Shown here: piece after piece, positions 16,617 through 42,558 of the stretch
Numbering within the stretch: the stretch's first letter is position 1
How the letters are laid out: each line of letters starts with the position of its first letter
From: an uncultured Verrucomicrobia subdivision 3 bacterium
GTDB taxonomy: Bacteria > Verrucomicrobiota > Verrucomicrobiia > Limisphaerales > UBA11358
Direction of reading: 5' to 3'
DNA: 64,000 bases
Assembly (NCBI GenBank): GCA_903865745.1
Contig: CAIPKV010000012.1
Location: 10,953-74,952 of the forward strand
Notes under the pieces: generated by a model
Database searches by the model: none
The model's input: the letters and a program-made list of their open reading frames with translations, nothing else
Told to the model about the DNA's origin: nothing
Program-made: the position numbers and the translations under genes

Positions 16617-16638
16617 CCGCACGCGGCTCCTTTTTCGC

Positions 16639-16678
16639 CGAATCGCACACCACATGTGGTAGGAAGGAAGGGAGAGAG
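16639..16678 (+). repeat. Repeat copy A (palindrome ACCACATGTGGT plus purine tract)
   Basis: CGAATCGCACACCACATGTGGTAGGAAGGAAGGGAGAGAG. Confidence 0.9.
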
Positions 16679-16692
16679 AAGGAAAAGGACTT

Positions 16693-17633: not shown

Positions 17634-17682
17634 AACGGCCTCCGGTTTGTTTCACGCTGATTGCTTTTAACACGTTTTTCAT
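17626..17682 (-). CDS. Putative 18-aa leader peptide MKNVLKAISVKQTGGRYA
   Basis: AGGAG SD upstream; stop overlaps the start of the next gene (ATGCCTAA). Confidence 0.35.
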   Translation of the reverse strand: MKNVLKAISVKQTGGRYA

Positions 17683-17761
17683 ATTTTCTTTTCTCCTGTC
17701 TCTCATTCTCCACTCCGCCAAACTTTCTGCTACGTGAATTTGCAACCAAATGAAAAGATGT

Positions 17762-18541: not shown

Positions 18542-18542
18542 A

Positions 18543-19484
18543 TCAGGAGATGTCGATTTGAGGTTGCGGTTTGGTTTCCGGCGCGGCCACCACTTGCGAT
18601 TGGACGTGCCCCTGTGCCTCGCGGATGTCCTTGAGAATTTCTTGGACGTCTGCGCTGGTAAATCCCGAATCATTGAATGCTTCTTGCAGCGCTCCGGGCA
18701 ACGCTGCACTTGGGTTTATTATGGTTGTCATGTTTTCTGTTGGGTTTTCTCCCCAGCCCACCGCACCGGCTTGACCGGTGAGCAGACCGAGGAAATTGAT
18801 GAGCGTGGCCAGCCGGATGCGGCGGCCTTGGTACTTGAATGAAATGAGCGACCCGTCTTTGCGCGTGCGGAAGTCCGTGACTTTTCCGGCTTTGACGAGC
18901 TTGGCCCAGCGGTCTTTCCGCAGGTTTCCCTTTTCATCCAGCAGCGCCAGCGCGAGCAGACGGACATCCAGTTTTTTGGCCTTGGGATACATCGTGAACG
19001 CCTTGCCTCTGCCCCTTCCCCGACCGGAAATAAATTGGAGCGTCCAGGCAAACGACTGAAGCTCCTTGAGGAATTTCGGCCGCAAGTCGAGCGTCCGACG
19101 GCCATTGGAGTTGGAGAAAATCAGATGGATGTGCCGGGTGGAGGTGTCGCGATGCACCCAGCCCAGCATGGAGGCGATACCCATCAGCTTTTGAAAATCC
19201 TTCGCCGCCTGCAACAGTCGCCGGTCAATGTCATCGAGCTGTTCGGCCGTGGCGTTACGCGGAGTTTGGACGGATATAACTGCAGTCCGGCAGACGCGCT
19301 TGGCTCTTGGATCATGGTGGTAGGCCAGCAGCAGTTCGGCGAGTTGCCGGGGAGTTCCCCTAGCCACGCCGGCATCCAAACCGTCGTATGTGCGGGACAC
19401 CTTTTTGGTGTTGGCAAAATACTTTATGGCCTCCACCGGACGGGAGGTGGCACGCAGGTTGATGATGGCGTAGGGAGCGTTCAT
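18543..19484 (-). CDS. HUH relaxase (MOBP/VirD2-like)
   Basis: N-terminal AIKY, WVHRDTSTRHIHLIFSN His-triad motif; coupled to MobC. Confidence 0.82.
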   Translation of the reverse strand: MNAPYAIINLRATSRPVEAIKYFANTKKVSRTYDGLDAGVARGTPRQLAELLLAYHHDPRAKRVCRTAVISVQTPRNATAEQLDDIDRRLLQAAKDFQKLMGIASMLGWVHRDTSTRHIHLIFSNSNGRRTLDLRPKFLKELQSFAWTLQFISGRGRGRGKAFTMYPKAKKLDVRLLALALLDEKGNLRKDRWAKLVKAGKVTDFRTRKDGSLISFKYQGRRIRLATLINFLGLLTGQAGAVGWGENPTENMTTIINPSAALPGALQEAFNDSGFTSADVQEILKDIREAQGHVQSQVVAAPETKPQPQIDIS

Positions 19485-19765
19485 GGCCAGAGTCCTTTCA
19501 GTTTTTGCACCGCTTCATCCACCGCTTGGGCGTCCACCGAGGTGCCCCTGGACACGCGGAGCGATTGATTGATAAGCACCCCCAGGCGGCGCATCTCCGT
19601 CGCCGCCTCGACCAGCTTGCTGATGTCCAATCCCGAAGTGTGTGCCAGGACTATGAATGCCACCGTGCGACCACGAAGCCCCCGCTTAAGCCCCATAAGT
19701 TGCTCCGCCAGTTGCCGGGGAAGCCTGGCACGACCAAAGGAAACACTGGTGGTCTTGCGGTTCAT
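19481..19765 (-). CDS. mobC: MobC-like relaxosome accessory protein
   Basis: MRRLGVLINQ resembles the L.RIGNNLNQ motif; ATGA overlap with the relaxase. Confidence 0.75.
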   Translation of the reverse strand: MNRKTTSVSFGRARLPRQLAEQLMGLKRGLRGRTVAFIVLAHTSGLDISKLVEAATEMRRLGVLINQSLRVSRGTSVDAQAVDEAVQKLKGLWP

Positions 19766-19858
19766 GGCTGTCCTCCTTCAGGTGAACCAGACACCCCCGA
19801 GGCGCTGTCGGCAGGGGGAAGTCCGTCAGAGTTATGTGTGCGGCAAGCTACGCTGTTC

Positions 19859-19910
19859 TGCGCCTTCGGCGCATCACCGCTGCTTGGCAAAGGGGCATCC
19901 GCCCCCTTGC
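19859..19910. promoter_or_regulatory. Candidate oriT
   Basis: Hairpins TGCGCC-TTC-GGCGCA and GCAAAGGGG-CATCCG-CCCCCTTGC, 100-150 bp upstream of mobC. Confidence 0.45.
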
Positions 19911-20554
19911 GACCCTGGTTGCTGGCCGCCGATGCGGCCAGAGCAGCCTCCACCGCCCGCCCGACATTAGGGGCGGAGACGGTGCGTTCGATGACGCGGA
20001 GGCATCCCTTGAGCACATCGGCTTCGATGACCTGTAGGGCGGCCGCAGGAAGCCTGATTGCGCCAATGACAGTGAGTCTGGCGCGGATCAGCGCCGACAG
20101 CGTGGGAGATGATTTATGAGTGGACATCCCTTCGTTGTAATAGAAGGGGGGGTGTCTGTTCCTAAACTATTTTGAAAAATCTTTTGGGGAAGTGTTATAG
20201 ACAGTCGCAGCCCTCGATAGTTGCCCCTTGGGCTTGCGCCCAGGCAAACAAATCGGGTCGGGACGTTGAACAGACTTTTGGGGATCTCGTAAGCGAGCGG
20301 GGTGATGACAACGAAGTCTGACCGAAATGCCGGCAGCACGCCGCGTGTAGCTTGCAGACTGTGAGCCCAAACCTTTTGGTGCAGCTCAGGAACTCCCCCG
20401 TCTGCCAATTGGCCTGACGCCAGGATTGAAACTGTTCATGGGCGTCAGTCTGAAGTCGGTTGCTAAATATCATAAGCATCGTACAGACATTATGAACGGC
20501 AGGGGGTGTCAGTTGCCGCAGAAACTGAGTTGTTAGAGTGCAACGTGCTCTCGA

Positions 20555-20593
20555 CGAATCTCACACCACATGTGGTAGGAAGGAAGGAGAGAG
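20555..20593 (+). repeat. Repeat copy B
   Basis: CGAATCTCACACCACATGTGGTAGGAAGGAAGGAGAGAG; one substitution and one indel versus copy A. Confidence 0.9.
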
Positions 20594-20627
20594 TAAAGTT
20601 CTGTCTCTAGCGTCATTCCTTTTAGGG

Positions 20628-21038
20628 TTAGAGGTCGAACGGGTCGAACGGTGCCCCGATATTTCGCGCAGCAAATTCTCGGACTATGACTTCGCGCCGG
20701 TCGGCAGGAATCATGTCCCATTTACTCGGGTCACAATTTTCAGGTAACGCCAAATTGTTTAGGCGGCACCACTCATGCAATTCGACCAAAAACGTTACAA
20801 CCCAAAACAATCCCTGTGGCGATGAACGAATTATTTCACCGGCGACTTTTATCCATTCTGGGTTAATCGCCCATTTGGATGTTTCCTTTTTCCGGCAAAA
20901 AGGCGAGTGACCGGTATGACTATCATCATGGTTAAAGTCCTCTGCGTAGTAATGTTCGCAGAGCTCATCACTCACTTCGGTTTCCGGGTCTAATTTGCGC
21001 GGAAGGGTTCTGAATTGGTCTCGCACAGGTTGATTCAT
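20628..21038 (-). CDS. Hypothetical protein ending FDPFDL (paralogue of 21049-21516)
   Basis: ELCEHY, SKWAIN and WCRLN..L.LP..CDPSKWDM motifs shared with the neighbour. Confidence 0.75.
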   Translation of the reverse strand: MNQPVRDQFRTLPRKLDPETEVSDELCEHYYAEDFNHDDSHTGHSPFCRKKETSKWAINPEWIKVAGEIIRSSPQGLFWVVTFLVELHEWCRLNNLALPENCDPSKWDMIPADRREVIVREFAARNIGAPFDPFDL

Positions 21039-21048
21039 GGCGTGTCCT

Positions 21049-21516
21049 TTATTTATGGCTGGCGACTTCCCAGTCGCTGTTTAGCGCCAGACCTTCCAAT
21101 ATGGCTTCGCGCTGTTCGCCGGACAGCATGTCCCATTTGCTGGGGTCGCAATCGTCAGGCAGCTCAAGCCCGTTCAGGCGGCACCACGCTTTCAGCTCGA
21201 CCAAAAACTTGACGACGCTCTCCACCTCATCTTCTGTGCATTGTTTCCTTTCGTAATCTGTGCCGGCCAGCTTCCGCATGAAGCCTTTTTCCACGCAGAC
21301 TTCCACCAGCCATTCCCGGTTAATCGCCCATTTCGATTTCCCGCTCCTCGCGTTTAACGGCCAGCAGGGAATTTTTTTGTCTGCCCAATCAATCCAGCTT
21401 TCAGCGGCGTAATGTTCGCAGAGTTCGCGCAGCGCTTCAGCCTCCGGTTCAATTATACGGGGACGAGTGGCGGATTGGTTCAGTTTTAGTTTTGTCGTCG
21501 AGGCGGTGTTTTTCAT
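21049..21516 (-). CDS. Hypothetical protein (paralogue of 20628-21038)
   Basis: Same shared motifs. Confidence 0.75.
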   Translation of the reverse strand: MKNTASTTKLKLNQSATRPRIIEPEAEALRELCEHYAAESWIDWADKKIPCWPLNARSGKSKWAINREWLVEVCVEKGFMRKLAGTDYERKQCTEDEVESVVKFLVELKAWCRLNGLELPDDCDPSKWDMLSGEQREAILEGLALNSDWEVASHK

Positions 21517-21518
21517 AC

Positions 21519-21563
21519 TGGCACGCTGGTCGGGAATCGAACCCGACCGAAACCAATCAGCGT
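21519..21563 (-). ncRNA. Candidate tRNA-like minihelix (acceptor stem plus T arm plus CCA; no D or anticodon arm)
   Basis: ACGCTGA-TTGGTTTCGG-TCGGG-TTCGATT-CCCGA-CCAGCGT-G-CCA. Confidence 0.5.
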
Positions 21564-21638
21564 GAAACCACCCACGATAACTATTTTAATCTGGAGATTA
21601 AAACCGCTCTACATCTATTTTGTGAAATCTTTTCCAAG

Positions 21639-24600
21639 TCAGGAAAAGTGCTCGCGCGCCTTGTCGAGAAACACCGGTAGCATCGTCCGCCGTTCGGGAT
21701 TGTTGTCAGGGTGAATGCACTCTTCCAAGGTTTCCCGCACACAGAGCAGAATACATTTCTTTCGGCATCGGCTGACGGCGGTATAGAGCCAGCGCCGGTT
21801 GGTAACGAGCGATTTGGTCATCACCACGATGCCGGTGTCGCACTCCACGCCCTGGGAAGAATGTCCGGTGCGGCACCACGGCCAGTCCACCTCGTCGAGT
21901 GTCAACCAGCCCACATTCTTCGAGCCATCGGCAGCCTTGTATGTGACTTGAATGGTGTCCGAGGCTTGCCCTGTGGTTACAGTGTCATCATAGACCGTCA
22001 CCAAGCTACCCTTTCGTATCTGGTAGGCAGCGGCCTTTGCCCCGACCTCCACCACCGCCAAAACATCACCTTTTTTGAAATCAAAAATCGTGGACTTATT
22101 GTGGCCAGCCGCCGCCCGCGCCATTTGGAGAATGTTCGAGTTCACCTTGAAGATGTCCGTGTGCCGAGGACAAAAGACCATGAAATTGGATTCCGGTGGA
22201 AGTGCGGTCACAAATCCGGCCGCCGCTTGCATGACCAGGAACTCGCTGGTCATATAATGCACCTCCATGCCTTGCCCGATTTTTCCCGGTACTTGGCCGA
22301 GATGGACTTGTTCAAAAAAATCAACAATGCCGCTGGACAGATGGTTGCTGGTTCGCCAATTGTGCGACAGCTGCGTCCCGGTCACTCCGGGTGTGCCGGG
22401 ATTTCTCTGTACCCACCTGACCAGGTCTTCCCCCACCAAACCCGGCCCGACCGGCATGTTTTGACCCGGCCCGACCGTGAGCAGCACGCGCTTGCCGGGA
22501 GCCCAGCTCATCGCCATCTGACCGGCCACGTCGCAATCCACCTGCCCAATCTCATCCCCGGCGAACACGTCGGCGTCCAAGGCGACGAAGCGTTTCTTTT
22601 GCTTGTGGGGCCTGATGTGATAGGTGGAGTGAATCGTTTCCACGGCCACGCGCTTATTGAGCCGTTCTCGCAGTTGCTGGGCACTTAAATGAGTGGCGCT
22701 GCCCACCCTTGTGACCAGCTTTTTATTCCGCGCAGCCTTCAACTCATTGGCGAGCGTTTCCGTCTTGCCGGTGCCGGGCGCACCGCTGATGACCTCGACG
22801 GAACCGCCGCCGGCACCTTGTTCAATGATCCGCCAGGCGAAGCGCAGTTCCCCGCGAACATAGTCGGCCCACCCGACCCAATCGCCTTTTTCGGGCACCC
22901 AGGCATTGCAGGAAAGGACATGCCGGGAGGCCAGCAGCCAATGCAATGACTGCAACAACCCTTCGTTGCCGAAAATCGCGATGAGCAGGTCGTAAAGGTG
23001 GCTGGACGAGTGGTACACGTCCCCATTTTCAGCCAGCCAAACTCTGACAAGTTCCAACAATAAATCACGCGGTAGCACTTCGTCATCAAACGGGTTTTTG
23101 AATTTCTGGGCGGCAGCGTGTTCCCTGTCCAGAGTTGCAAGCAGGTTGGTAAAACGCGGGTCGCCCTTCAAACGCTGTCGGATTTCCTTTTCGGTAATTG
23201 CCGGACGGGCGGGCGGAGTCTGGCTCTCCATTTGCCCGATTGCCAGCAGCGCCTCCATCGGCTTGAGTTTTTTCTTCTGGGGTTTCCGTGGTCTGGCTGC
23301 TGGGGTGTCATCGCAACTCATGGCGTCAATAATGTCGGGTGGCAGTTTGGAATAAATCTCGATGTTCTTTGAGCTGTCGCTGGCATCAGGCGAGTCCTCT
23401 GGTTTTGCAGGCCTGAGAAAGAACCAGACCGGGGCATCCCATTGGCTCTTGCGACCACGTTTTACCACGATGAAACCCATTTCCTTTAGTGCATCCCGGA
23501 CTGAGGTTTCTCCGTACGTCGTATGGGGGAGCACTTGAGAGATATGGAAGGTCATCTGTCCGCACTTCAGCACCGCCTTTTCCACCGCTGCCAGCACGGC
23601 ATCCGTTTCCCGAGCATATTTCTCGTAACAGCGTTCGATGTCCCGTTCCGTCCAGTCCTGCCAGGTCGCATATTTATTATGCGGAGCACCGTTCAACAAA
23701 AGCGCTTCGTTAAACGCCTTCTCGATTTCATCCAGTACCGGCTTGAATTCGGGAAGGGCAAAAACCAATTGTTTCGCCTTCCCCACTTTTACGCCCCGGT
23801 CCCAAAGAGACTTCCAGGACAGCAGGCAATTGATGTAAAGCCGCGTTCGGTCAGCCCTGTATTTGGTCATCGAGAGGTATTTTCCGCCGGAGCTGCGCGG
23901 CCCGATTTCCCGGCCTAGGTCTTTGCAAAATGTATTGAACGCCTTTTGCGGCAGGTCATTGAAGAGCTTTTGCACCCAAGCCAGGGGTTTCCCCAACACC
24001 TTCGCGATTTTTTCCTCTGACACGTTGTAGGCGCGCAACTGTAAAGCAGACACCTGCTCGCTCAACCCAGCCAGGCTGCCGCCCTGTTTACCCTGCTTGC
24101 CTTTGGCCGGCTTAGCTTGTGGCATCACCGAAATGGCGTCCTTGATGGTCTGGATTTCGACGTTGCCCATGAGCTTCTCCGGTCGCCAAAATGCAAAGGA
24201 TTCCAGGAATCGGGAGGGCCGGTTGCAATTCTTTGAAGCTCCTTCATCCAGACTAAGCGGCCCGGCATAGCCATTTGATTTAATTTCATCCCACAGACAG
24301 TACACGACCAGCTTGGCATCTTCCGTATCCACCCAGTCCGCAAAATAAATTCCGGCATGCACCCCGTTGGGCGTCTGGCCCGCCCAGGCGACCTCCGGAA
24401 TTTTTTCCAGCACGTTCAGCAGTTCGGCCTTTTCGCCGGGAGTCGCGCCCCGCCCCTTGACCCATTCGCCCTGGGCATTCTGCTTCTGTATTTCAAAATC
24501 CAATGTAAGGTCATGCCGCTTGCCGGGATTGATAGAACGATGCTTTCCCCGCTTTTGTTTTTCAATTTCAACTGGTTTGTCCGGGTCATCCCGCCGCCGC

Positions 24601-24836
24601 GCCTTGTCCAACAACTCCGGTGAAAAAATCGCGTTGACGTAGTACTCGAACTTGTAACCGCGAATTTTTAGCGCCCGGGAGTAGAGTTGAAAATTCCGCA
24701 ACTTGGTAATCTTATTTTGCGACACGAATACTTCGCCACGGGTGAGCTGCTGAATTTTCTGAATGTGCAGGTGCGAACCACCCAAGACAGGTGCGGTTGG
24801 TGGCGCTGACGGGGCGGATGGCGTGGTGGTGGACAT
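21639..24836 (-). CDS. AEP-type primase fused to a RecD-like SF1 helicase
   Basis: LTLDFE, QTPNGVH and LDEGASKNCNRPSR (AEP-like); SGAPGTGKT, GDEIGQ, TGHSSQGVE and LYTAVSR (RecD-like). Confidence 0.75.
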   Translation of the reverse strand: MSTTTPSAPSAPPTAPVLGGSHLHIQKIQQLTRGEVFVSQNKITKLRNFQLYSRALKIRGYKFEYYVNAIFSPELLDKARRRDDPDKPVEIEKQKRGKHRSINPGKRHDLTLDFEIQKQNAQGEWVKGRGATPGEKAELLNVLEKIPEVAWAGQTPNGVHAGIYFADWVDTEDAKLVVYCLWDEIKSNGYAGPLSLDEGASKNCNRPSRFLESFAFWRPEKLMGNVEIQTIKDAISVMPQAKPAKGKQGKQGGSLAGLSEQVSALQLRAYNVSEEKIAKVLGKPLAWVQKLFNDLPQKAFNTFCKDLGREIGPRSSGGKYLSMTKYRADRTRLYINCLLSWKSLWDRGVKVGKAKQLVFALPEFKPVLDEIEKAFNEALLLNGAPHNKYATWQDWTERDIERCYEKYARETDAVLAAVEKAVLKCGQMTFHISQVLPHTTYGETSVRDALKEMGFIVVKRGRKSQWDAPVWFFLRPAKPEDSPDASDSSKNIEIYSKLPPDIIDAMSCDDTPAARPRKPQKKKLKPMEALLAIGQMESQTPPARPAITEKEIRQRLKGDPRFTNLLATLDREHAAAQKFKNPFDDEVLPRDLLLELVRVWLAENGDVYHSSSHLYDLLIAIFGNEGLLQSLHWLLASRHVLSCNAWVPEKGDWVGWADYVRGELRFAWRIIEQGAGGGSVEVISGAPGTGKTETLANELKAARNKKLVTRVGSATHLSAQQLRERLNKRVAVETIHSTYHIRPHKQKKRFVALDADVFAGDEIGQVDCDVAGQMAMSWAPGKRVLLTVGPGQNMPVGPGLVGEDLVRWVQRNPGTPGVTGTQLSHNWRTSNHLSSGIVDFFEQVHLGQVPGKIGQGMEVHYMTSEFLVMQAAAGFVTALPPESNFMVFCPRHTDIFKVNSNILQMARAAAGHNKSTIFDFKKGDVLAVVEVGAKAAAYQIRKGSLVTVYDDTVTTGQASDTIQVTYKAADGSKNVGWLTLDEVDWPWCRTGHSSQGVECDTGIVVMTKSLVTNRRWLYTAVSRCRKKCILLCVRETLEECIHPDNNPERRTMLPVFLDKAREHFS

Positions 24837-25045
24837 GATTTATTTTATTGGTTTTAGCCTCTCAATGAAGAAAGTTTCGCAGGACTCCATTCTCATCGCG
24901 CAAAACCGGTTCCTCGGACTCGATGCCGTCAACCTCGACGACCCGTCCGACCGGGAACTGGTTTTGGCCAGTCCGCGATAGCCAACGCGAGGGCGCTCGC
25001 CGGCTATCTGGGGACCAGCGACAGCAGTCGAAAGAGTTTTCTCCT

Positions 25046-25080
25046 TCTCCCTTCCTCCGCACCACATGTGGTGGGCGATT
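25046..25080 (-). repeat. Repeat copy C (inverted relative to A and B)
   Basis: Reverse complement AATCGCCCACCACATGTGGTGCGGAGGAAGGGAGA; 31/35 identical to copy A. Confidence 0.88.
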
Positions 25081-25126
25081 AGCTCGTTCCCGCTCTGGCC
25101 GGAAGCTTTAGTGTTGGCGGGGTTGT

Positions 25127-26380
25127 TCATGGCAGTTTGAATAGAGGGACGGTTTGTTCCTCGATTCCAGCCCTTTTGCTTTGCTTTGGCTTAGGTGCTG
25201 TTAGAGGTTTTTTTGGCTTCGGCGGGGGCAAAGGTGTCCCTACATCTACGAGATTATCGACGGCAACTCCCAAGGAATACAATTTGCTTCTTAACAGGTC
25301 GTGTTCGGCTACCAATTCCATCGCCTTGCCCATGATTACGCCGCCATGATCGGTGGGGACATCGAGTTTCTTTTGGACGGAGCGTTTTTTTCTTTCCTCA
25401 TAAGCTGCCACATGGACGTAATTGACCTTCACTGTGCCTGCCAATTTCTTGAATTTATTTAGCCGTGCTTGAAGGTCGCTCCCGAAATAGCTGATTTCAG
25501 GGCCAATTACTTTCATGTCATTTGTGTCGTATTCGAAGGTTTCGATTCGGCTGAAGCTCTGTGGCGGGCCATCCGCCTTAACAACTCTCTCATCGTTTCC
25601 AAAAGCTAAGTCTCGAATTATCGGGGCCAAATATTTTTGCTTCCCGACATAGGCCGTGAAATCAAAACCCGGCGGGGAGTCTCGAATGTCCGCAATCGTT
25701 TTGAACGACGGCTTGCCGGACTTTAACAATCGCTCGGTGACATCGCCTACGCCGGGAATTTCGTTCACATCCAGCGGTGGTAAAATTGCGTCCCAGTCTT
25801 TGTCGTAGATGACGTTGATGCCGTCCGGGGCTTTTTGGTCGGTGGCAATCTTCGCCATCATCATATTTGAAGCAATGCCAATTTTGCAGTGCAGCTTCCG
25901 TTCCCGAAGGATTCGCACTTTGAGTTTTTCAGCCACCGGACGGGCCAGGTTCAAAGATTCGTCGGAAGTGGAGGCCTGGCAATAGGGGGTCAAATCGATG
26001 TACGCCTCATCCAATCCGACCGTTCCGATGGCCGGGTTGGTAATTCCCATTGCTGTCAGCTCGTCCTTGGTTAATTTGATGATTTCATCCGCCTCGTCCT
26101 CATAGGCCAGGGTTCTTGGGAGCAGCCAGGTCGCCGTCGGGCAGAGTTTGGCTGCCTGCAATGATGGCATTCCCTTCTTAACGCCAAAGTCTCTCGCCTC
26201 GGGGGTGGCCGTGGAAACCACCTTGCGCCGTCTTTTTTTTCCGACGATGACCGGCTTGCCCACCAGGTCAGGATGGTCCCGCAATTCCACCGACGCGAAA
26301 AAAGAGTTCATATCGAAAATCAGGATCACCCGGTATTTGAAATTGGCCGGGGGCGCTGAAGTTGTGACACAGGCGCTCAT
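25127..26380 (-). CDS. dinB: Y-family DNA polymerase IV
   Basis: FDMNSFFASVE, EARDFGVKKGM, GLDEAYID, PGVG HhH; C-terminal QTVPLF clamp-motif-like tail. Confidence 0.92.
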   Translation of the reverse strand: MSACVTTSAPPANFKYRVILIFDMNSFFASVELRDHPDLVGKPVIVGKKRRRKVVSTATPEARDFGVKKGMPSLQAAKLCPTATWLLPRTLAYEDEADEIIKLTKDELTAMGITNPAIGTVGLDEAYIDLTPYCQASTSDESLNLARPVAEKLKVRILRERKLHCKIGIASNMMMAKIATDQKAPDGINVIYDKDWDAILPPLDVNEIPGVGDVTERLLKSGKPSFKTIADIRDSPPGFDFTAYVGKQKYLAPIIRDLAFGNDERVVKADGPPQSFSRIETFEYDTNDMKVIGPEISYFGSDLQARLNKFKKLAGTVKVNYVHVAAYEERKKRSVQKKLDVPTDHGGVIMGKAMELVAEHDLLRSKLYSLGVAVDNLVDVGTPLPPPKPKKPLTAPKPKQSKRAGIEEQTVPLFKLP

Positions 26381-26387
26381 GCAATTT

Positions 26388-27947
26388 TCAGGGACTGCAT
26401 AACAATGCTGCCGCCGCCCGGATGCCTTCGTGGGCGTTTTTATTTTTGGCAATTGCCCGTGCCAGGTTCGCATTTTTTCCATCGCTGAGCCGGTTGAATA
26501 CCTGCGCCAGAATTTCAGGGTTTGTTATTTTTTCCGTTGCGATTGCCACCACATCCAAATTGGCATCCGTTAACGCCACTTTTTCCAATACATCCTGGGC
26601 GATGATGTCTCTCTTTACCGCCGCCTCACGAACGTTCAGCTCTTCGTCAAATGCAAGCTTGCCCAGAGTGCCCGGTTCTTTGGTCCGGCAAGCCACGATT
26701 TCTCTGAAATCAGGAACCTCACTGCTGGCAAATTTTTCCAAAACCTCCTCTGGCAGCCGTCGGCTTTGCAGGGCTTCAATCGCTTCGTGTGGCTCTCCAT
26801 TCAGCGCAATTCTGGCCACGGTTTCCGGCTTAACTTTTCTATTATGAACGATGTTATTAACGACATATTGACCAGGTTGGTCGGCAAATTCATCCAGGAT
26901 TTCAGGCGTGACGTCAGAACGCGAAACCACCCTATGTCGGCATATCCAATCTGTGTCCAGCCTCGGAAGCTGTTTGGCTATTTCTATGGGCAGCGCTTCA
27001 TTTTCAATTAGAGATTCAAGGATGTCTGTGCCCGAAAGCGGATAATTATTGATGTCCAGTCGTCCCGAAAGGAAGTCATCCGCCATTCGCGCAATTAACT
27101 TTTTGTCTTTGACTTCCCGGGCAGCAGCCAGCGTTTCTATTTCATTCAGCCCCCAACAGTGACCGTTAACCACCAGCGGCCAGTGTTTTCTCCAGTCGGC
27201 GTCGCGCGGCATCTCTTTGTTGTTCAGGTACACCGCATATTTTTCTCCATACTTATCACATAAGCTCCGCAGCACAGCGGGGTCTGTCACTCGATTGGCG
27301 TGTGACGCTGCCAAATCCAGATGCCTTCGCCCAATTTCGTTTATGACCGCCGTAGGCGTATGCTTATTATGGCAAATTGAAGACAAAACATTTTTATCAT
27401 CACATTTTGCCAGCATCCGAAGTGTCTCCGGGGAGTGGGTCAGGGTTGCCACGGCCCCTCTTATCTTCGGTTCCACATCGCTTGCAAAGCGGTCAATAGT
27501 TTCTTGTGCGAGCCTCCTGCTAAAAAGAGCTTCATAGGTCACATCTGGATCTGAGTGGCGAGCCAGTTTTTCAATTGTCTCCAACCTGGTGTTTGGGTTT
27601 TCGACGATCGAACGAATCCAGCAGCAGTTCCCAAATGCCGCCCATTTATCCAGCTCTTCAGGAGGCGCGTCTGTTCTCTTGCATAAATAGTAAGGGGGCT
27701 GCCAATGCTTTTTCCCGTATTTCGCCAATTCGTTGGCCTTTTCAAAAGGCAGAACTAAGTTTCTCACCAACATACCTATTAATTCGCCGCCATCAGTGAT
27801 GGGTTTGGCCAACAACTCATCAGCCATGCGGCATACTGTATCCAATTCTTTGGCTAGAAACGCGGCCTCTTTCGAGTGCACATCGTCAAGGCCCCAGGTC
27901 CAACCCTCGACCACAATAGGCTGTTCCGATTGCGGGGTAGCACTCAT
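26388..27947 (-). CDS. HEAT/LRV-like alpha-solenoid repeat protein
   Basis: Repeated NPNT..ETIEKLA..D..V..A units. Confidence 0.65.
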   Translation of the reverse strand: MSATPQSEQPIVVEGWTWGLDDVHSKEAAFLAKELDTVCRMADELLAKPITDGGELIGMLVRNLVLPFEKANELAKYGKKHWQPPYYLCKRTDAPPEELDKWAAFGNCCWIRSIVENPNTRLETIEKLARHSDPDVTYEALFSRRLAQETIDRFASDVEPKIRGAVATLTHSPETLRMLAKCDDKNVLSSICHNKHTPTAVINEIGRRHLDLAASHANRVTDPAVLRSLCDKYGEKYAVYLNNKEMPRDADWRKHWPLVVNGHCWGLNEIETLAAAREVKDKKLIARMADDFLSGRLDINNYPLSGTDILESLIENEALPIEIAKQLPRLDTDWICRHRVVSRSDVTPEILDEFADQPGQYVVNNIVHNRKVKPETVARIALNGEPHEAIEALQSRRLPEEVLEKFASSEVPDFREIVACRTKEPGTLGKLAFDEELNVREAAVKRDIIAQDVLEKVALTDANLDVVAIATEKITNPEILAQVFNRLSDGKNANLARAIAKNKNAHEGIRAAAALLCSP

Positions 27948-28603
27948 TTAGCCTTCTTCTTCACTGATGGTTTGGCCGCCCGGCCAATCTTCCTTCGCGT
28001 CGCGCGTTTTGCTTTCTTCTCAGATTTACCAGCCGGAGGGTGGGCAGCGTAGTGGTTTTTGCGCGCCAATAGCTGCAGGACCATTTCGTAGGGAATCAAA
28101 TCTGCCTTGCTGACATCATCGGCGGCTTTGGCCCCGTAGCAGACACGAAACAACTTCAGCAGCTCTTTTTCCTTCTCGATTCCAAGCAGTGTCCAGCCCT
28201 CTGGCCGGCCGGCAATCGGCTTCAATGCGTCCATGACTTTTTGCCGGCCTTGCTCGAAGGCCACAACTTTTGTCGAGGCTACTCCCATTTGTACATAATA
28301 CAGTTGCTCAGGTGTCGCTGCTTTGCGCGAGTAGCGCGGCCTGATCTGGTAGGCCTGCTGAAATGCCGTTATTTCAAGCAATCGCGGGGTGATTTCGGGC
28401 GATTTGTGAAGAATCCATGATTTGCGGACGAATGGTACGCGGCCGCCATGCACCAAATTGTGTCCCATCCCAATGAAGAGCAGGTAGGCATCGAGTTCCA
28501 ATTTCGCCTGATGCAGGTCAATTGGTGTAATTGCGTTGCCATCTTTGAACGAATCTTTGAACGAATGGCCCAACAGTTCAGGTGCGGAAGTTGATTTTGG
28601 CAT
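27944..28603 (-). CDS. Hypothetical protein
   Basis: Operonic ATGA overlap; basic C-terminal tail. Confidence 0.65.
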   Translation of the reverse strand: MPKSTSAPELLGHSFKDSFKDGNAITPIDLHQAKLELDAYLLFIGMGHNLVHGGRVPFVRKSWILHKSPEITPRLLEITAFQQAYQIRPRYSRKAATPEQLYYVQMGVASTKVVAFEQGRQKVMDALKPIAGRPEGWTLLGIEKEKELLKLFRVCYGAKAADDVSKADLIPYEMVLQLLARKNHYAAHPPAGKSEKKAKRATRRKIGRAAKPSVKKKAK

Positions 28604-28627
28604 ATTATTGATTTGTCATTGTTAAGG

Positions 28628-29779
28628 TTAAATTGTTTCTCGCAGTTTCATCCACAGTTTGCCCAGCCAGTTTTGACCGACCCACTGGCCGTTGATTTCG
28701 GCCATGCCCCAGTAAAAAGAATCTCCCCGGGGCCGCGCCGAGCAATCTTCGACAATCATTTTACGGCCCGTGGACTGTAGCAGTTTTTTTATTTCTTCGT
28801 GCTGCTCCCATTTCAGCCGGAGGCATTGGCGCATGATTTCCAGATCCACGTCCGAGTCGGGATTTTCCAGCAGACGGCGGTTCTTCTTGGCAATCATCTT
28901 GACGCCCATTGGCGACTTGCAAGCTGCCAGCTGCTTTTGAATGGCCGGGTGCCCGTCAAACCGCAGCACTTGAAACAGCGCTTCTGAAGTCCGATAGGTC
29001 ACGCCTTTGTGCAAAACGGAATGGGCCGACATGTTGCCCAACGCCCCGTATGGTTCATTGACGGCCCGTATCAAAACCATTTCCGGCATCTTCGGCAGCA
29101 CCGCCTTGTCCGCGATGGCTTTGTCCAGTTGCCGCAACAATTCCTTTTTGTCATCGGCTTCGGCCAGACTCTTCAGCTCGCGCAGCCAGGTCAAAAAAAT
29201 GTCCAAATCTGTGGTGTACGACTTCGGCGTGTAATAAGAATTCGGGCTTTTGACGGGCATCAATTTTACCACCGCCGCCCGAATCGTCGCCGCCGTCAAC
29301 ACTTGGCCGGGGGAATTCTTTGCCGCCGCCTGAAGCACCTTGACGCGCTCCTTTGGTTTCGCCCGGAGCAATTCGCGCATCTGGCCCTCGGTCTTCGGCA
29401 GTACAACCGTGCCAATTGGCACGGTCTTGAGGTCGGCTTCCAGTTTAGAAAATGCTTCGGCGGAGCGGACCAATCGGGTGCCGTAGTTGGCCGTAAAATC
29501 GAATCTGTCTCGGCAGTATGCCTCAAAAGTGGAATGTGTTTTCCGGTAAAGCTCTTCTTCTCGGATGTGCCAAAGCGCCTTGCAGACCTCGACAAATTTG
29601 TCGCCATGTTCGCGGATCACGGCCTCAAGTTGCTGCAGCCGCTTCTCCTGCTTTTCACCTAATTTTTGCAGTGGTTTTTCGACGTCGCCGTTTTGTCCGT
29701 TGCCGTTTCGAGCCGACGATTTTTCTATCGCCGCCTCCCTGCGCGCCGCTGGTGGTTTGCTGGTGGAATTCGTTTTCAT
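28628..29779 (-). CDS. DUF3102-like N-terminal domain fused to a NADAR (YbiA-like) domain
   Basis: LGNM...YRTSEALFQ...KWEQH..IKKLLQSTG..IVED...DSFYWG...GQNWLGKLWMKLR. Confidence 0.85.
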   Translation of the reverse strand: MKTNSTSKPPAARREAAIEKSSARNGNGQNGDVEKPLQKLGEKQEKRLQQLEAVIREHGDKFVEVCKALWHIREEELYRKTHSTFEAYCRDRFDFTANYGTRLVRSAEAFSKLEADLKTVPIGTVVLPKTEGQMRELLRAKPKERVKVLQAAAKNSPGQVLTAATIRAAVVKLMPVKSPNSYYTPKSYTTDLDIFLTWLRELKSLAEADDKKELLRQLDKAIADKAVLPKMPEMVLIRAVNEPYGALGNMSAHSVLHKGVTYRTSEALFQVLRFDGHPAIQKQLAACKSPMGVKMIAKKNRRLLENPDSDVDLEIMRQCLRLKWEQHEEIKKLLQSTGRKMIVEDCSARPRGDSFYWGMAEINGQWVGQNWLGKLWMKLRETI

Positions 29780-30423
29780 CCGCTTCCGAATGCCGATATT
29801 CCAGCATATTTAATGCCGTCAATACCGGTAATCCCCTTGCCATCAAAGGATTTTATCGCGCCCCGCCTGCCCGGTGCCGGCGCGTTTTTGATGGCACAAC
29901 AATTTTTGTTTTCAGCTTTACGATTTTTGCCGGTCAGAATTTTTCCGCTCGAATCAAATTGCCGGGACTGGCAGCCGTTGCCGCCCACCAGCTGTGGGTT
30001 GTTTCCCGCCAATACCACCGGGTTTCTCCCGCCACACGAGCCAAGCATCCCACGACCGGAATCAGTGCCATTCATCGCTCCGCTGTTCATCGCCCGACTG
30101 GTGACGCACCCCTTGTGCTGGTTTCCCAAATCGGCACGGCAGTTCCCCTGATTCTGCACCCGGCTGGCTTTTCCGTCTGAGTGGTCCGGTCGGTTAGTCG
30201 TGTTGCTCACCGTTATCTTTCCACCGCCTCTCGTTCCGCCGTTCCAGTTGCTCCGCGCATCGTTCACGCCATCGTTCCTCTGTCATTCCGTTGCTACTGC
30301 TCCGCCGCCTTGCTCTCTGTCCCTACCGGCTGCCGTTTGCCGCGTCATCGGGTCGTTTGTTTTAAGTCCCTTGTGAAAAACAAAACGCCCCGACAACCGG
30401 GGCCAACTAGAAAGAAAAAACGT

Positions 30424-30693
30424 ATGAGCAAACAAACGAACAAACCTGCAACCGCAACCAACACGCCGGAATCGAACAAGCCGGTTCACGAAATCCGGGT
30501 CAATGGCATCCGTGCCACCATCTGGAAAAACGACACCGACAAGGGGCCGCGTTTCAACACCACGTTCGAGCGCAGCTACCGCGACGGGGAAGAATGGAAG
30601 AAAACCGATTCCTACGGTCGCGAGGATTTGCTGGTTCTCGCGTATGTGGCGAAAGAAGCGTTCCGCTGGATTGTCAGCCAAAACAACAAGTAA
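30424..30693 (+). CDS. Small plasmid/ICE protein (putative ssDNA-binding)
   Basis: PVHEIRVNGIRATIWKN...TFERSYRDGEEWKKTDSY family pattern. Confidence 0.65.
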   Translation: MSKQTNKPATATNTPESNKPVHEIRVNGIRATIWKNDTDKGPRFNTTFERSYRDGEEWKKTDSYGREDLLVLAYVAKEAFRWIVSQNNK

Positions 30694-30740
30694 CCCACAA
30701 CGGCTGGCGGTCGGCAACGGCCGCCAGCCCCTTCAAATTT

Positions 30741-31019
30741 ATGATTCTCGCACAACCAAAATTTCCACTCGGCCAAATCGTGGCCACGCCGCACGCCCTG
30801 GGTAAATTGTCGGCTGCCGAAATTACCAACGCGCTGAACCGCCACCAGGCGGGCGACTGGGGCGACCTGGACAAAGATGACAAGTTGGAAAACGACATCG
30901 CCCTCGAAAAAGGTTTCCGCATTTTGTCGGCTTACACCGGCAACGACGGCATCAAATTCTGGATCATCACCGAATCGTCGCGGGCGGTCACGACCGTCCT
31001 ACTGCCGGAAGATTATTGA
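30741..31019 (+). CDS. Plasmid-related small protein
   Basis: FPLGQIVATPHAL...RHQAGDWGDL...RILSAY...TTVLLPEDY. Confidence 0.8.
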   Translation: MILAQPKFPLGQIVATPHALGKLSAAEITNALNRHQAGDWGDLDKDDKLENDIALEKGFRILSAYTGNDGIKFWIITESSRAVTTVLLPEDY

Positions 31020-31100: not shown

Positions 31101-34100
31101 ATGCCGAGCCGGGATGTTCAGGACTTTATCGCCCATTGGTCTGCCGCCAGCGCGTCCGAACGGGCCAACTCGCAACCGTTCCTTTTGGAACTGTGCGACC
31201 TGCTCGGTGTCCCCCGACCCGACCCGCATCCAGACAAAGGATATTTTTTCGAGTTTCCAATCGTTGAGCACCATCCCGATGGCACCACCAGCAACGGGCG
31301 TATTGACCTGTATCGCCGCGCGCATTTCGTTCTCGAATCCAAGCAGTTTCAGGAGCAGAAAGCCGAGGCCAGCCAGCTTGAACTCGCCGCCCAAGAAGCG
31401 GGCGTAGTCACTCGCAAAAAATCTTCCCAGCCCGTGCGCGGCACCGGCGCATGGGATGATGCGATGATGAAAGCGCGCGGCCAAGCCGAGCGATACGTCC
31501 GCGCCATTCCAGACGACAATCCCCCATTCATCATCGTCGTGGATGTCGGCCACTCGTTTGAAATCTACGCCGATTTTTCACAGGCCGGCAAAGCCTACCT
31601 GCCGTTTCCTGATCCGCGCACGTTCCGCGTCCGGCTCGCCGACCTTGCCGATGAAAAAATCCGCGAACGACTCCGGCTCATCTGGACTGACCCCGCCGCG
31701 CTCAACCCGGCGAAACGCTCTGCCGATGTCACCCGCGAAGTGTCCGGCCATCTGGCGGAACTTGCCAAATCTTTGGAGCAGGCCGGACACGAACCCGACA
31801 TCGTCGCTCAATTTCTCACGCGCTGTCTGTTTTGCATGTTCGCGGAGGATGTCGAATTGCTTCCCAAGGACAGCTTCACCGATTTGCTGGAATCACTGCC
31901 GGCCAACGGCGAAGGCTTTGAGGATGTCATGCGCCAGTTGTTCCGTGAAATGAACACCGGCACCGGCAAAGGCATCTCGGTTGTCTTACGGAAAAAATTG
32001 CTTCACTTCAACGGCGGGCTATTCGCTGACGATACCGTTTTGCCCATCAACGGACTGCAACTCGGCTTGCTCAAAGAAGCCGCCCGCCAGAATTGGGGCA
32101 ACGTCGAACCAGCCATTTTCGGCACGTTGTTGGAACGCGCCTTGAACCCGAACGAACGCCACCAGCTTGGCGCGCACTACACCCCGCGCGCCTACGTCGA
32201 ACGGCTGGTATTGCCCACCGTCATTGAACCGCTTCGTTCCGAATGGGAAAACGTCCGCGCCGCCGCACTGACCAAAGCCCGTGCGGGCGACCTGAAAAAA
32301 GCCCGCGCCGAGGTGAACGAGTTCCACGAACGCCTTTGCAAAGTCACTGTCCTCGACCCCGCTTGCGGCTCCGGCAATTTCCTTTACGTTGCTTTGCAAC
32401 ACTTGAAAGTCTTGGAGGGTGAAGTATTCGACGTGGCCGCGCAATTCGGCGATACGTTCCGGCTGGAATTGGAACGGCAGACAGTTGACCCGCATCAGTT
32501 CCTGGGCATTGAAATCAATCCGCGTGCGGCTTCCATTGCGGAGCTGGTTTTGTGGATTGGCTATTTGCAATGGCATTTCCGGTTGCACGGCAAACGCACG
32601 CCGCCGGAACCGATTTTGCGCGCGTTCAAAAATATTCAATGCCGTGACGCCGTATTGGAATACGACGGCGAACCGCAACCCGCCCGTGACGATGCCGGCA
32701 AAGATATCACTGTTTGGGACAGGCGCAGCAAAAAAACCGACCTTGTTACTGGCCGCGAAGTGCCGGATGAAACCAAGCGAGTGCCGTTGCTGACCTACAA
32801 AAATCCACGCCAGGCACAATGGCCATCGGCAGATTACATCGTCGGCAATCCGCCATTCATCGGCACGGCGCGGATGCGGGAAGATTTGGGCGATGGCTAT
32901 GCCGAGACACTGCGCGCAACTTATCCCGCCGTGCCGGAATCTGCTGATTTTGTTTTGTATTGGTGGCACAAGGCCGCCGAATCGACCCGCGCCGGCAAGG
33001 TGAATCGCTTTGGCCTCATCACCACCAACAGCTTACGTCAGACTTTTGCCCGGCGCGTGGTGCAGGCGCAACTATCCGCCAAGCCGCCGCTGTCTTTGCT
33101 CTTTGCCATTCCTGACCATCCGTGGGTGGACACGGCGGAAGGTGCGGCGGTGCGGATCGCGATGACTGTCGGCGCGGCGGGCGAACTGCCCGGCGAACTA
33201 CTGGAAGTGACCGGCGAAGAACCGCAGCCCGACGGTTCGGAAATAGTTTCATTCAAATCACATGTTGGAAAAATTTCCGCCGACCTTACCACCGGCGCGG
33301 ATGTAACGACCGCAGTTGAACTCAGGGCGAATGAAAATCTGACAAGTAGAGGCATGATGTTGTTTGGCGATGGGTTCATCGTCACGCCAGAAGAAGCCGA
33401 AAAACTTGGACTCGGAAAAGTTGGTGGCCTCGAAAAAATAATCCACCCGTATCGCAATGGACGCGATTTGGCAGACAAACCGCGCGGCGCATTTGTAATT
33501 GATTTGTTTGGACTGACGCCAAATCAAGTGCGTGACCAATATCCAGGGGTTTATCAACACGTTTTAACTCGCGTAAAACCAGAGCGTGACGCAAACCGTG
33601 ACAAATCAATCAGGGAAAACTGGTGGATTTTCGGACGGCCACGCACTGAAATACGTCCCGCGCTGGTCGGCATTTCGAGATACATTGCGACAGTTGAAAC
33701 ATCCAAACACCGTATATTTCAATTTCTCGAATCTGAAATTTTGCCGGACAACAAACTCGTCGTAATTGCACTTGATGATGGTTTCCATCTTGGCGTTTTA
33801 AGCAGTCGCATTCACGTTGTCTATTCGCTCGCCGCTGGCAGTTGGCTAGGCGTTGGCAACGACCCAGTTTATGCGAAGTCGCGCTGCTTCGATCCTTTTC
33901 CATTTCCGCTTTCCACCGAGGCGGAGCAAAAGTCGATCGGTAAGCTGGCGGAGAAATTGGACGCGCACCGCAAGCGCGTGCAAGCACAGCACGGCCTCAC
34001 TCTCACCGGCATTTACAACGTCCTCGAAAAAATCCGCGCCGGCGAAAAACTCACCGACAAGGAAAAAGTCATCCACGACGCCGGCCTCGTTTCCGTGCTG

Positions 34101-34556
34101 AAGCAGTTGCACGACGACCTCGATGCCGCCGTGTTCGCCGCCTACGGCTGGCCGGCCACGCTGACCGACGCCGAGATTTTGGAACGCCTGGTTGCCTTGA
34201 ACGCCGAGCGCGCCGCCGAGGAAAAGCGCGGCGTAATCCATTGGCTCCGCCCGGACTACCAAACCAAGTTGAATCCGGGTGTCACGCTTCCCGCCGAACT
34301 GCCATTCTCGCTCGACAAAAAATCCAAAAAGGCGAAAGCCACGGCGCAAAAGCCAAAGGGCAAGGAATCATGGCCGAAGAAAATGGCCGAGCGCGTGCAG
34401 GTGGTCGAAGCGGTGTTGCATCGCATCGGCACGGCCACGCCCGCCGAGTTGGCCGTGCAAATCAAACGTGCCAAGCCCGCCGATGTTGCCGAGATTTTGG
34501 AAACGCTCGTCACCATGGGCCGCGCCCGCGAGAAGAACGGAAAATTCAGCCGGTGA
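31101..34556 (+). CDS. MmeI-like type IIL/IIG restriction-modification enzyme (N6-adenine MTase)
   Basis: ERANSQPFL...GRIDLY...VLESK nuclease; VLDPACGSGNFL motif I; GNPPF motif IV; TRD. Confidence 0.9.
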   Translation: MPSRDVQDFIAHWSAASASERANSQPFLLELCDLLGVPRPDPHPDKGYFFEFPIVEHHPDGTTSNGRIDLYRRAHFVLESKQFQEQKAEASQLELAAQEAGVVTRKKSSQPVRGTGAWDDAMMKARGQAERYVRAIPDDNPPFIIVVDVGHSFEIYADFSQAGKAYLPFPDPRTFRVRLADLADEKIRERLRLIWTDPAALNPAKRSADVTREVSGHLAELAKSLEQAGHEPDIVAQFLTRCLFCMFAEDVELLPKDSFTDLLESLPANGEGFEDVMRQLFREMNTGTGKGISVVLRKKLLHFNGGLFADDTVLPINGLQLGLLKEAARQNWGNVEPAIFGTLLERALNPNERHQLGAHYTPRAYVERLVLPTVIEPLRSEWENVRAAALTKARAGDLKKARAEVNEFHERLCKVTVLDPACGSGNFLYVALQHLKVLEGEVFDVAAQFGDTFRLELERQTVDPHQFLGIEINPRAASIAELVLWIGYLQWHFRLHGKRTPPEPILRAFKNIQCRDAVLEYDGEPQPARDDAGKDITVWDRRSKKTDLVTGREVPDETKRVPLLTYKNPRQAQWPSADYIVGNPPFIGTARMREDLGDGYAETLRATYPAVPESADFVLYWWHKAAESTRAGKVNRFGLITTNSLRQTFARRVVQAQLSAKPPLSLLFAIPDHPWVDTAEGAAVRIAMTVGAAGELPGELLEVTGEEPQPDGSEIVSFKSHVGKISADLTTGADVTTAVELRANENLTSRGMMLFGDGFIVTPEEAEKLGLGKVGGLEKIIHPYRNGRDLADKPRGAFVIDLFGLTPNQVRDQYPGVYQHVLTRVKPERDANRDKSIRENWWIFGRPRTEIRPALVGISRYIATVETSKHRIFQFLESEILPDNKLVVIALDDGFHLGVLSSRIHVVYSLAAGSWLGVGNDPVYAKSRCFDPFPFPLSTEAEQKSIGKLAEKLDAHRKRVQAQHGLTLTGIYNVLEKIRAGEKLTDKEKVIHDAGLVSVLKQLHDDLDAAVFAAYGWPATLTDAEILERLVALNAERAAEEKRGVIHWLRPDYQTKLNPGVTLPAELPFSLDKKSKKAKATAQKPKGKESWPKKMAERVQVVEAVLHRIGTATPAELAVQIKRAKPADVAEILETLVTMGRAREKNGKFSR

Positions 34557-42541: not shown

Positions 42542-42558
42542 ACATTTACAGGATTACC

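Follow-up and report, generated by a model that had tools for sequence, protein, structure and literature searches.

A NADAR domain joined to a putative DNA-binding module on an integrative mobilisable element, with a possible link to translesion synthesis

The window analysed here is a 64,000-nucleotide stretch of contig CAIPKV010000012.1 (positions 10,953 to 74,952 of the forward strand), from the genome of an uncultured Verrucomicrobia subdivision 3 bacterium (assembly GCA_903865745.1). Within it, an integrative mobilisable element carries a gene for a protein (P0001) in which a NADAR domain is joined to an all-helical N-terminal domain, referred to below as the N-domain. The NADAR erasers known so far comprise DarT1 antitoxins, agents of phage counter-defence (AdfN) and orphan enzymes with no assigned role. 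Judged by its sequence and surroundings, the fusion suggests an orphan mobile-element NADAR in a new form, offering a link to translesion synthesis. The reading we prefer, held tentatively and at slightly less than an even chance, is that of a DNA-targeted base-ADP-ribose glycohydrolase that is paired with translesion synthesis and keeps the DNA of the element replicable.

Residues 242-383 are a genuine NADAR domain. They score 72.5 bits with the Pfam family NADAR (PF08719; cut-off 35.1 bits, E 6.1e-20), over profile positions 8-162 of 163, and they match phrog_1017 at E 1.2e-23. The top-scoring curated model is DS32_2 (NF053876, DS-32B), with 102.2 bits (E 1.7e-29) and a cut-off of 240 bits that the domain does not reach; TIGR02464 (riboflavin biosynthesis intermediates N-glycosidase) gives 62.4 bits (E 5.8e-17), likewise below its cut-off of 73.7. 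In the whole-protein AlphaFold model, which was used for fold search and secondary structure, the domain consists of helices flanked by strands at residues 234-237, 255-262, 341-345 and 355-367, a YbiA-like core, with a moderate predicted local distance difference test score (pLDDT) over residues 345-383. Its best Foldseek neighbours in the PDB are E. coli YbiA (2b3w, TMt 0.63) and the ADP-ribose-bound Phytophthora NADAR (8bau, TMt 0.55), and YbiA is the best match among solved proteins in both sequence and structure (E 6.6e-13). A first-pass annotation of this DNA, made by a model from the letters and translated open reading frames (ORFs), had already assigned a NADAR to this ORF; the exact position on the minus strand, the Pfam score and the YbiA-like fold bear it out.

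Active-site residues were transferred from Schuller 2023 (PMC11543638) through a HMMER alignment to YbiA. The first catalytic glutamate (E43 in P. nicotianae, E88 in E. coli C7) is E266, in the motif TSE, and the YbiA-type glutamate is E344 (V343-E344), aligned to the VE of YbiA. The aspartate and tryptophan that contact the pyrophosphate correspond to D353 and W357 in DSFYWG, a motif preceded by an insertion of 4-5 residues, and the phosphate-binding lysine position, seven residues after the catalytic glutamate (K50 in P. nicotianae, K95 in E. coli C7), is occupied by R273. The annotation had described a complete YbiA/NADAR motif set; the vE part stands, the supposed DxxWG is DxxxWG, and the phosphate-binding lysine has to be corrected to an arginine. 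Across 16 relatives, the columns of E266 and E344 each hold Glu in 15 sequences and Asp in one, and R273, the Trp and the Gly are present in all 16.

The identity of one residue separates the subtypes of the superfamily: at the position of P. nicotianae E125, YbiA-type enzymes have Glu, the BC4488 clade Asp and phage NADARs His (PMC11543638). Because the fusion has Glu at this position, Ile342 two residues before E344 where the DarT1-linked BC4488-type has Asp, and no His, its NADAR domain is by this alignment YbiA-type, neither BC4488-type nor phage-type. YbiA itself (K-12, 2b3w) is a single-domain, chromosomal protein with Lys at the phosphate site, whereas the fusion has the insertion before its D...WG motif and an N-terminal extension of 232 residues. 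The K-12 ybiA gene sits in a LexA-controlled DNA-damage operon (PMC11125620) together with DNA enzymes, a theme echoed by the DinB gene described below.

The fusion ORF begins with ATG and ends with TAA. Eleven full-length homologues, all metagenomic and 51-71% identical, were found; most share the N-terminus MKT, so the start of the fusion is conserved. Among 301 genomes of the phylum, the full-length fusion is present in a single one, that of the host itself (97% complete), where it is the sole NADAR. All segments of the protein are basic, with isoelectric points of 8.2-10.2, and pLDDT is below 50 across residues 1-33. In the homologue alignment, the two-helix region that precedes the NADAR core forms the conserved block YTTDLKIFLxWL...KAIxDKAILPEMPE.

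Folded with 48 homologues, the N-domain is predicted as eight helices with a pLDDT of 94.9. Its Foldseek neighbours are the Raf1 N-domain, Spo0J/ParB (1vz0), the DNA-bound DNA-binding domain of Noc (6y93) and the operator-bound DNA-binding domain of KorB (1r71), with TM-scores of 0.5-0.6, probabilities mostly of 0.6-1.0 and E-values of 0.05-1.5. In the viral fold library (BFVD), uncharacterised phage proteins rank first (E 1.5e-5), ahead of a DUF3102 phage protein and ParB-like proteins; sequence and profile searches of the PDB with the N-domain gave no match. These models suggest that the N-domain is plausibly a ParB/KorB-like helical fold and a putative DNA-binding module.

The annotation had called this region a DUF3102-like domain typical of DNA-binding proteins of mobile genetic elements, a description of which the remote likeness survives and the membership does not. 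A Pfam search of residues 1-233 returned no match at E<=10, DUF3102 included (PF11300, threshold 24.4 bits), and the host-wide scan with this model finds other ORFs and misses the N-domain as well as its two host paralogues. An hhalign comparison with nine true DUF3102 proteins gave a probability of 76.8% over 50 columns that span a helix-turn-helix-like core, and both domains are found in mobile-element proteins. The N-domain is, however, longer, and its conserved ExQxRxL segment is not in the aligned DUF3102 core. On these profile comparisons the N-domain is a remote relative of DUF3102, not a member of the family.

An exhaustive phmmer search with residues 35-175 recovered 8,674 cluster representatives at E<=1e-3, of which 1,066 also pass E<=1e-10; the majority are stand-alone proteins of 200-250 residues. 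Among the best 147 relatives, the Pfam fusion partners are NADAR (three, the query being extra), Dam (four), MT-A70 (three), N6_N4_Mtase, EcoRI methylase, ParB_N and radical SAM (SplB-like), and one relative has a sub-threshold DUF3102 match. Plasmid relatives are almost all annotated as 'hypothetical', and one is fused to DUF5131; annotated phage genomes gave no match to the N-domain at E<=1e-6. The N-domain thus represents a very large mobile-element family that has no Pfam model and is repeatedly fused to DNA methyltransferases. Two more paralogues lie in the host genome, at C1:81077-84279 and C70:153206-159026. One has 283 residues and a Zn ribbon, and its gene comes after DUF5131 and DUF4326 genes on a second mobile element of the host; the other, of 334 residues, belongs to a prophage-like module that also encodes a PolB-type exonuclease, an ERF recombinase, DUF6551 and an SNF2/DEAD helicase.

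The fusion is the first gene of a tightly spaced co-directional array in which it is followed by genes for a 219-residue protein, a 519-residue protein and a DinB-type polymerase (Table 1), the probable DinB start lying 8 nt past the stop of the 519-residue gene. The 219-residue protein has no family match in any library searched and no PDB match, and the 519-residue protein has in the PDB a weak match to the leucine-rich repeat variant 1lrv alone. Farther along the minus-strand array come the helicase protein, a presumed replication protein of the element, then a mob/relaxase module and finally, at 15316-16428, a tyrosine integrase gene.

A metagenomic relative (L008) has the identical gene order. 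Its identity to the window locus is 87-96% in the relaxase module, 67% in the NADAR fusion, 55% in the 519-residue protein, 38% in the 219-residue protein, 33% in DinB and 31% in the helicase protein. Conservation is thus strongly mosaic over window positions 15692-30390, and such a pattern suggests module replacement under a fixed gene order. In a third architecture, on contig ERZ1426825 (26 kb), a 1407-residue radical-SAM and NADAR gene is followed by four genes, a homologue of the 219-residue protein (79% identical) and DinB. The NADAR-219-LRV-DinB operon is conserved, and the linkage recurs in three architectures. In small integrated elements with MobC/NikA-like genes (L002-L007), by contrast, the fusion (about 55% identity) stands alone, without the DinB, 219-residue and 519-residue partners.

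Larger and rearranged relatives were also observed. Three giant proteins have 995 (P0020), 1218 (P0022) and 716 (P0025) residues; in P0025 and P0022 the N-domain and NADAR occur together with a radical-SAM domain that weakly resembles the SplB/PA0069 DNA-repair group. P0020 and P0022 carry an extra extension of about 600 residues whose end is weakly protein-kinase-like (MAD6/PknB-like matches in P0022, E 0.007-0.03). Two 345-residue proteins (P0013 and P0014) have apparent tandem NADAR-like domains, the second of which is 43-47% identical to the NADAR of the fusion family. Two further loci, in other genomes of the phylum (L029, G017:C40; L030, G270:C21), encode NADAR in frames of 717 and 1269 residues and have no N-domain, 219-residue gene or DinB; they were set aside as unrelated architectures. 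In G017 the NADAR domain opens an ORF of 700 residues inside a long co-directional array.

According to the reading we prefer, the YbiA-type NADAR would hydrolyse ADP-ribose (ADPr), or a similar ribosyl adduct, off the exocyclic amino group of guanine, and perhaps also off that of cytosine, and the ParB/KorB-like N-domain and the basic tail would hold the enzyme on DNA. NADAR would clear N2-guanine adducts from the DNA of the element, DinB would copy past the N2-deoxyguanosine (N2-dG) adducts that remain, and the element could then replicate, on arrival or as a resident, in a cell that is undergoing ADP-ribosylation of its DNA. Any guanine-directed DNA ADP-ribosyltransferase (ART) may be the source of the adducts; candidates are pierisin/ScARP-like toxins, polymorphic-toxin ARTs and, in other hosts, DarT1. 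The domain identities, the conserved catalytic residues, the fusion partners of N-domain relatives, the conserved operon and the missing DarT are observed, whereas we infer from sequence and context what the substrate is, that the protein binds DNA and works together with DinB, and where the adducts come from.

Published enzymology is consistent with the individual steps. Every NADAR subtype tested so far hydrolyses the guanine-ADPr of DNA and RNA alike; those of YbiA type also remove cytidine-ADPr (PMC11125620, PMC12945103, PMC11833690). The higher activity of the C7 NADAR has been attributed to nucleic-acid binding (PMC11833690), which provides a rationale for a DNA-binding module on a YbiA-type core. 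DarT1, ScARP, pierisin and Scabin link ADPr to the exocyclic N2 of guanine (PMC11543638), and DinB polymerases specialise in the bypass of N2-dG adducts (PMC3901139). Since DinB bypasses adducts at the very linkage that NADARs cleave, an eraser paired with a translesion polymerase is proposed. DUF4326, a frequent fusion partner of NADAR, is predicted to process ADPr-phosphate (Aravind-lab survey), and the presence of an N-domain protein beside DUF4326 in the second mobile element of the host lends the proposed removal and bypass modest support.

Several observations weigh against this proposal. The fold matches of the N-domain have weak E-values, and the Raf1 N-domain, which does not bind DNA, is an equally good neighbour; no cognate DNA site was found for the N-domain. 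R273 replaces the catalytic lysine, and in the C7 NADAR, a DarG1, the equivalent K95R variant is active in vitro and gives no rescue of DarT1 toxicity in vivo (PMC11543638). No DNA-directed ART was found in the host, where DarT is absent and other ART families were not searched exhaustively, and in the phylum sample the DarT systems are of the DarTG2 type only, with no source of guanine-ADPr identified. The fusions that stand alone in L002-L007 indicate that the DinB link is frequent, not obligatory, and ADPr-dG would be a bulky lesion for DinB to pass.

Where the adducts would come from bears on the alternatives as well. The annotation had reported no ART or DarT nearby, which holds: the DarT hidden Markov model (HMM; PF14487) has no match in the window or in the host genome, tblastn of the host with four DarTs of the phylum yields no DarT (best E 0.28), and no Pfam ART family is found in the 36 window ORFs scanned, the C-terminus of the Rhs protein included, a scan that leaves aside the ORFs at 1-9.9 kb and a few at 49-58 kb. 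Nor do the called genes of homologous fusion neighbourhoods include a DarT or a Pfam-assigned ART. The HMM search can be considered valid because it recovers DarT in 23 of the 301 genomes of the phylum. The annotation had also suggested looking for darTG in the host and co-occurring taxa; besides the negative host, re-examination of DarT genomes of the phylum found NADAR in one of 22, on another contig, and a DarT-NADAR pairing in none. DarT directly adjoins a macrodomain ORF of 350-400 residues in 17 of the 20 genomes checked, and for this reason the DarT systems of the phylum sample are assigned to the thymidine-modifying DarTG2 type. Tested NADARs all fail to reverse the thymidine-ADPr made by DarT2 (PMC11125620).

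These results bear most directly on a dedicated anti-DarT1 counter-defence, in which the fusion would be an orphan DarG1-like antitoxin for entry into DarTG1-bearing recipients. The phage orphan NADAR AdfN (gp30.3 of T4-like phages) does exactly this, removing ADPr from phage DNA and restoring replication (PMC11825919), and the fusion resembles it in being an orphan NADAR that a mobile element carries without a toxin partner, as a match to the same phrog_1017 family and in its presumed ADPr removal. All tested NADARs cleave guanine-ADPr in vitro (PMC11125620). The fusion differs from AdfN, however, in its carrier, an integrative mobilisable element rather than a phage; in its additional 135-residue helical domain of DNA-binding type; in having Glu instead of the phage-type His at the E125 equivalent; in its link to DinB; and in its host clade, which has no DarT1. 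DarG1 (BC4488 clade; E. coli C7, Geobacter lovleyi; PMC11543638) shares the superfamily, the fold and the first catalytic glutamate, and its N-terminal extension is thought to bind single-stranded DNA (ssDNA), such that both proteins pair a NADAR core with a nucleic-acid handle. Yet its hallmarks are missing from the fusion, which has no DarT1 neighbour, Ile342 for the equivalent of Asp171 (the Asp at -2) and Arg273 for Lys95, and a helical domain plus two helices, at most analogous in role, in place of the beta1-beta2-alpha1 extension. In addition, YbiA and the T4 NADAR failed to rescue DarT1 toxicity in cells (PMC11125620), and with the host and phylum surveys described above this makes an anti-DarT1 function rather improbable. 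The annotation had proposed a DNA-tethered anti-DarT or repair enzyme. Its repair or protection half is plausible in view of the orphan state on an element, the DNA-enzyme fusions of the N-domain and the DinB operon, and its anti-DarT half is weakened by the host without DarT, the DarTG2-only phylum and the YbiA-type site with R273. The protection of ssDNA during transfer that it also envisaged has no backing in the upstream region, which has no hairpin promoter, or in the orientation of the gene to the mob genes, which is not the same in all element types. A related possibility is that the fusion is the antitoxin of an unrecognised toxin in its own operon, the 219- or 519-residue protein, forming an ART-NADAR pair like YarT-YbiA. 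YbiA-type NADARs can indeed be antitoxins of non-DarT ARTs (YarT; PMC11125620), and the 219-residue protein, which has no detectable family, accompanies NADAR fusions in three architectures; but the fusion stands alone in L002-L007, the 219-residue protein has no ART signature in any library searched or in the PDB, and four genes separate it from the NADAR gene on ERZ1426825, which leaves such a pair very unlikely.

Other alternatives dispense with DNA as the substrate. The fusion might destroy toxic nucleotides or soluble immune signals derived from ADPr (cADPR-like molecules, ADPr derivatives), the role preferred by the Aravind-lab survey for the majority of phage NADARs, with the N-domain serving as a regulator or localiser. 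The highest-scoring curated model, DS-32B of the DS-32 anti-phage system (NF053876, DefensePredictor), points in the same direction, as the partner of that NADAR is a phosphoribosyltransferase (PRTase) rather than a DNA ART, and so does the DUF4326 gene beside a host N-domain paralogue. The architecture of DS-32B differs from that of the fusion, however, and neither a PRTase, the hallmark of DS-32, nor SLOG, Macro or Nudix genes occur among the scanned neighbours. A small-molecule enzyme would have no obvious use for a domain of DNA-binding type, the N-domain family is fused overwhelmingly to DNA enzymes, and the conserved DinB linkage would be left unexplained, so that we regard this function as improbable. 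It is quite unlikely that the protein is a KorB/ParB-like DNA-binding regulator or partition-type protein whose NADAR is a ligand sensor or catalytically secondary. Such a role would fit the KorB, Noc and Spo0J fold neighbours, the place of the gene at the head of its operon beside a 641-bp divergent control region that is in part 93% conserved, and the prevalence of stand-alone N-domain proteins in early or replication regions of mobile elements. It is at odds with the strong conservation of the NADAR catalytic residues, with the lack of a ParB_N domain and a ParA partner, and with the enzyme partners elsewhere, which suggest that the N-domain delivers a catalytic module; moreover, a comparison of upstream regions across the fusion loci found no shared operator-like palindrome. 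A housekeeping riboflavin-intermediate N-glycosidase (the classical YbiA/COG3236 activity) would agree with the TIGR02464 match and with the JGI name 'ribA/ribD-fused uncharacterized protein' for homologues, yet that match is below the curated cut-off, the gene is a mobile-element gene with a DNA-binding-type fusion in a DinB operon, no riboflavin genes occur among the scanned neighbours, and the family is sporadic (one of 301 phylum genomes); this is the most unlikely of the functions considered.

To return to erasure of base adducts coupled to bypass, a broader form of the proposal can be stated, which we consider doubtful. The N-domain would be a general DNA-addressing adaptor that delivers Dam, MT-A70, N4/N6 methylases, SplB-like radical-SAM enzymes and NADAR to element DNA, and the operon would be the first case described, in conjugative or mobilisable elements, of erasure and bypass directed against ADP-ribosylation at guanine N2, with an adduct eraser coupled to a dedicated translesion polymerase. 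A parallel is offered by the orphan DNA methyltransferases that occur in phages and in the leading regions of plasmids (PMC11541004): there, too, the element encodes an enzyme that changes the modification state of element DNA and so evades attack by the host, and N-domain relatives are fused to methylases of the Dam, MT-A70 and N4/N6 types. The direction is opposite: those methyltransferases add a protective mark, whereas the NADAR of the fusion is presumed to remove an adduct.

Research on the reversible ADP-ribosylation of DNA bases is still young, and the fusion adds to it in several respects. The joining of NADAR to a DNA-binding-type domain is a new architecture, not mentioned in the NADAR literature cited here, and integrative mobilisable elements are a new class of carrier, which that literature does not link to NADARs. 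The conserved DinB link suggests that ADP-ribosyl-N2-guanine may be handled like other N2-dG lesions, by removal and bypass. The N-domain family, large and without a Pfam model, appears to address DNA enzymes to DNA on mobile elements. If the proposal is true, erasure combined with bypass would help explain the purpose of orphan bacterial NADARs, including the LexA-controlled ybiA.

Table 1. Features of the fusion gene, its operon and the surrounding window (window coordinates)
Feature	Position	Strand	Basis or remark
Whole gene, 383-residue N-domain-NADAR fusion (P0001)	28628..29779	-	ORF list and translation
Basic tail, predicted disordered, residues 1-40, pI 10.2	29660..29779	-	pLDDT and charge count
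Residues 41-175, all-helical N-domain, putative ParB/KorB-like helix-turn-helix (HTH) module, remote DUF3102 relative	29255..29659	-	Model, Foldseek, phmmer, hhalign
Residues 176-232, linker (177-192) and two conserved helices (192-223) before NADAR core	29084..29254	-	Model and conserved block
Residues 233-383, NADAR catalytic domain	28631..29083	-	Pfam, NCBIfam, PHROG, YbiA alignment, Foldseek, column conservation
Codon of E266	28982-28984	-	Codon verified
Codon of R273	28961-28963	-	Codon verified
Codon of E344	28748-28750	-	Codon verified
Codon of D353	28721-28723	-	Codon verified
Codons of W357-G358	28706-28711	-	Codons verified
Region from NADAR start to divergent 90-residue gene, 641 bp, no convincing ORF	29780..30420	.	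Sequence, L008 alignment, DNA fold
Conserved partner, 219 residues, 25 nt downstream of NADAR gene	27944..28603	-	Counterparts in L008 and ERZ1426825
LRV/HEAT-like repeat protein, 519 residues, start overlaps stop of 219-residue gene by 4 nt (ATGA)	26388..27947	-	L008 counterpart, junction sequence
DinB-type Y-family DNA polymerase, probable true start 26380	25127..26482	-	Pfam IMS 2e-38 and IMS_C
Protein of 1065 residues with superfamily 1 (SF1; RecD/UvrD-like) helicase domain, co-directional, 290 nt after DinB	21639..24836	-	Pfam AAA_19, AAA_30, UvrD_C_2
tRNA-Thr(UGU) 3' half, anticodon loop to acceptor end, beside integrase	15236-15290	-	Marks left end of element
Small divergent genes	30421-30693, 30594-31019	+	No family match in any library
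MmeI-like type IIG restriction-modification gene, right behind the two small divergent genes	31101-34556		PADLOC 1544 bits
Rhs-repeat protein, 1648 residues, last ~300 residues a candidate toxin tip	42502-47448	+	No Pfam match in last ~300 residues
Four small ORFs after Rhs gene, one with sigma-70 region-4 HTH	47501-49336	+	
Genuine DUF3102 protein	9996-10610	-	PF11300 scan, 41.4 bits
Tyrosine integrase overlapping tRNA-Leu (12728-12812, -)	11408-12757	-	

Upstream of the fusion, about 210 nt of the intergenic region (30210-30420) are about 93% identical to L008, set against 67% at the protein level in the flanking coding sequence. This segment contains the hairpin GCCCCGGTTGTCGGGGC, followed by a T-run, and may act in control or recombination or give rise to an RNA. 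For the DNA upstream of the fusion, an ssDNA promoter of the Frpo-like hairpin kind was considered and rejected, with a DNA fold z of -0.86 and no long inverted repeats. The element palindrome ACCACATGTGGT was likewise dismissed as a binding site of the N-domain, being absent from all other fusion-carrying loci.

At the left end of the element, the tRNA-Thr half has no second copy in the window or the genome; the sole tRNA-Thr(UGU) of the contig (C12:91761-91846) runs in the opposite direction and does not share its sequence. Att repeats gave no right boundary for the element. An argument from the leading region was also dropped: the orientation of the fusion to the mob genes fits in the window and L008, but in L006 the fusion converges on a gene beside mobC. 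Elsewhere in the window, a hidden ART in the C-terminus of the Rhs protein or in the adjacent ORFs was considered, and Pfam identified no ART family there. The DUF3102 protein and the integrase at tRNA-Leu look like a second, separate small integrated element, and that integrase (11408-12757) is about 24% identical to the integrases of two NADAR-carrying elements, L002 and L006.

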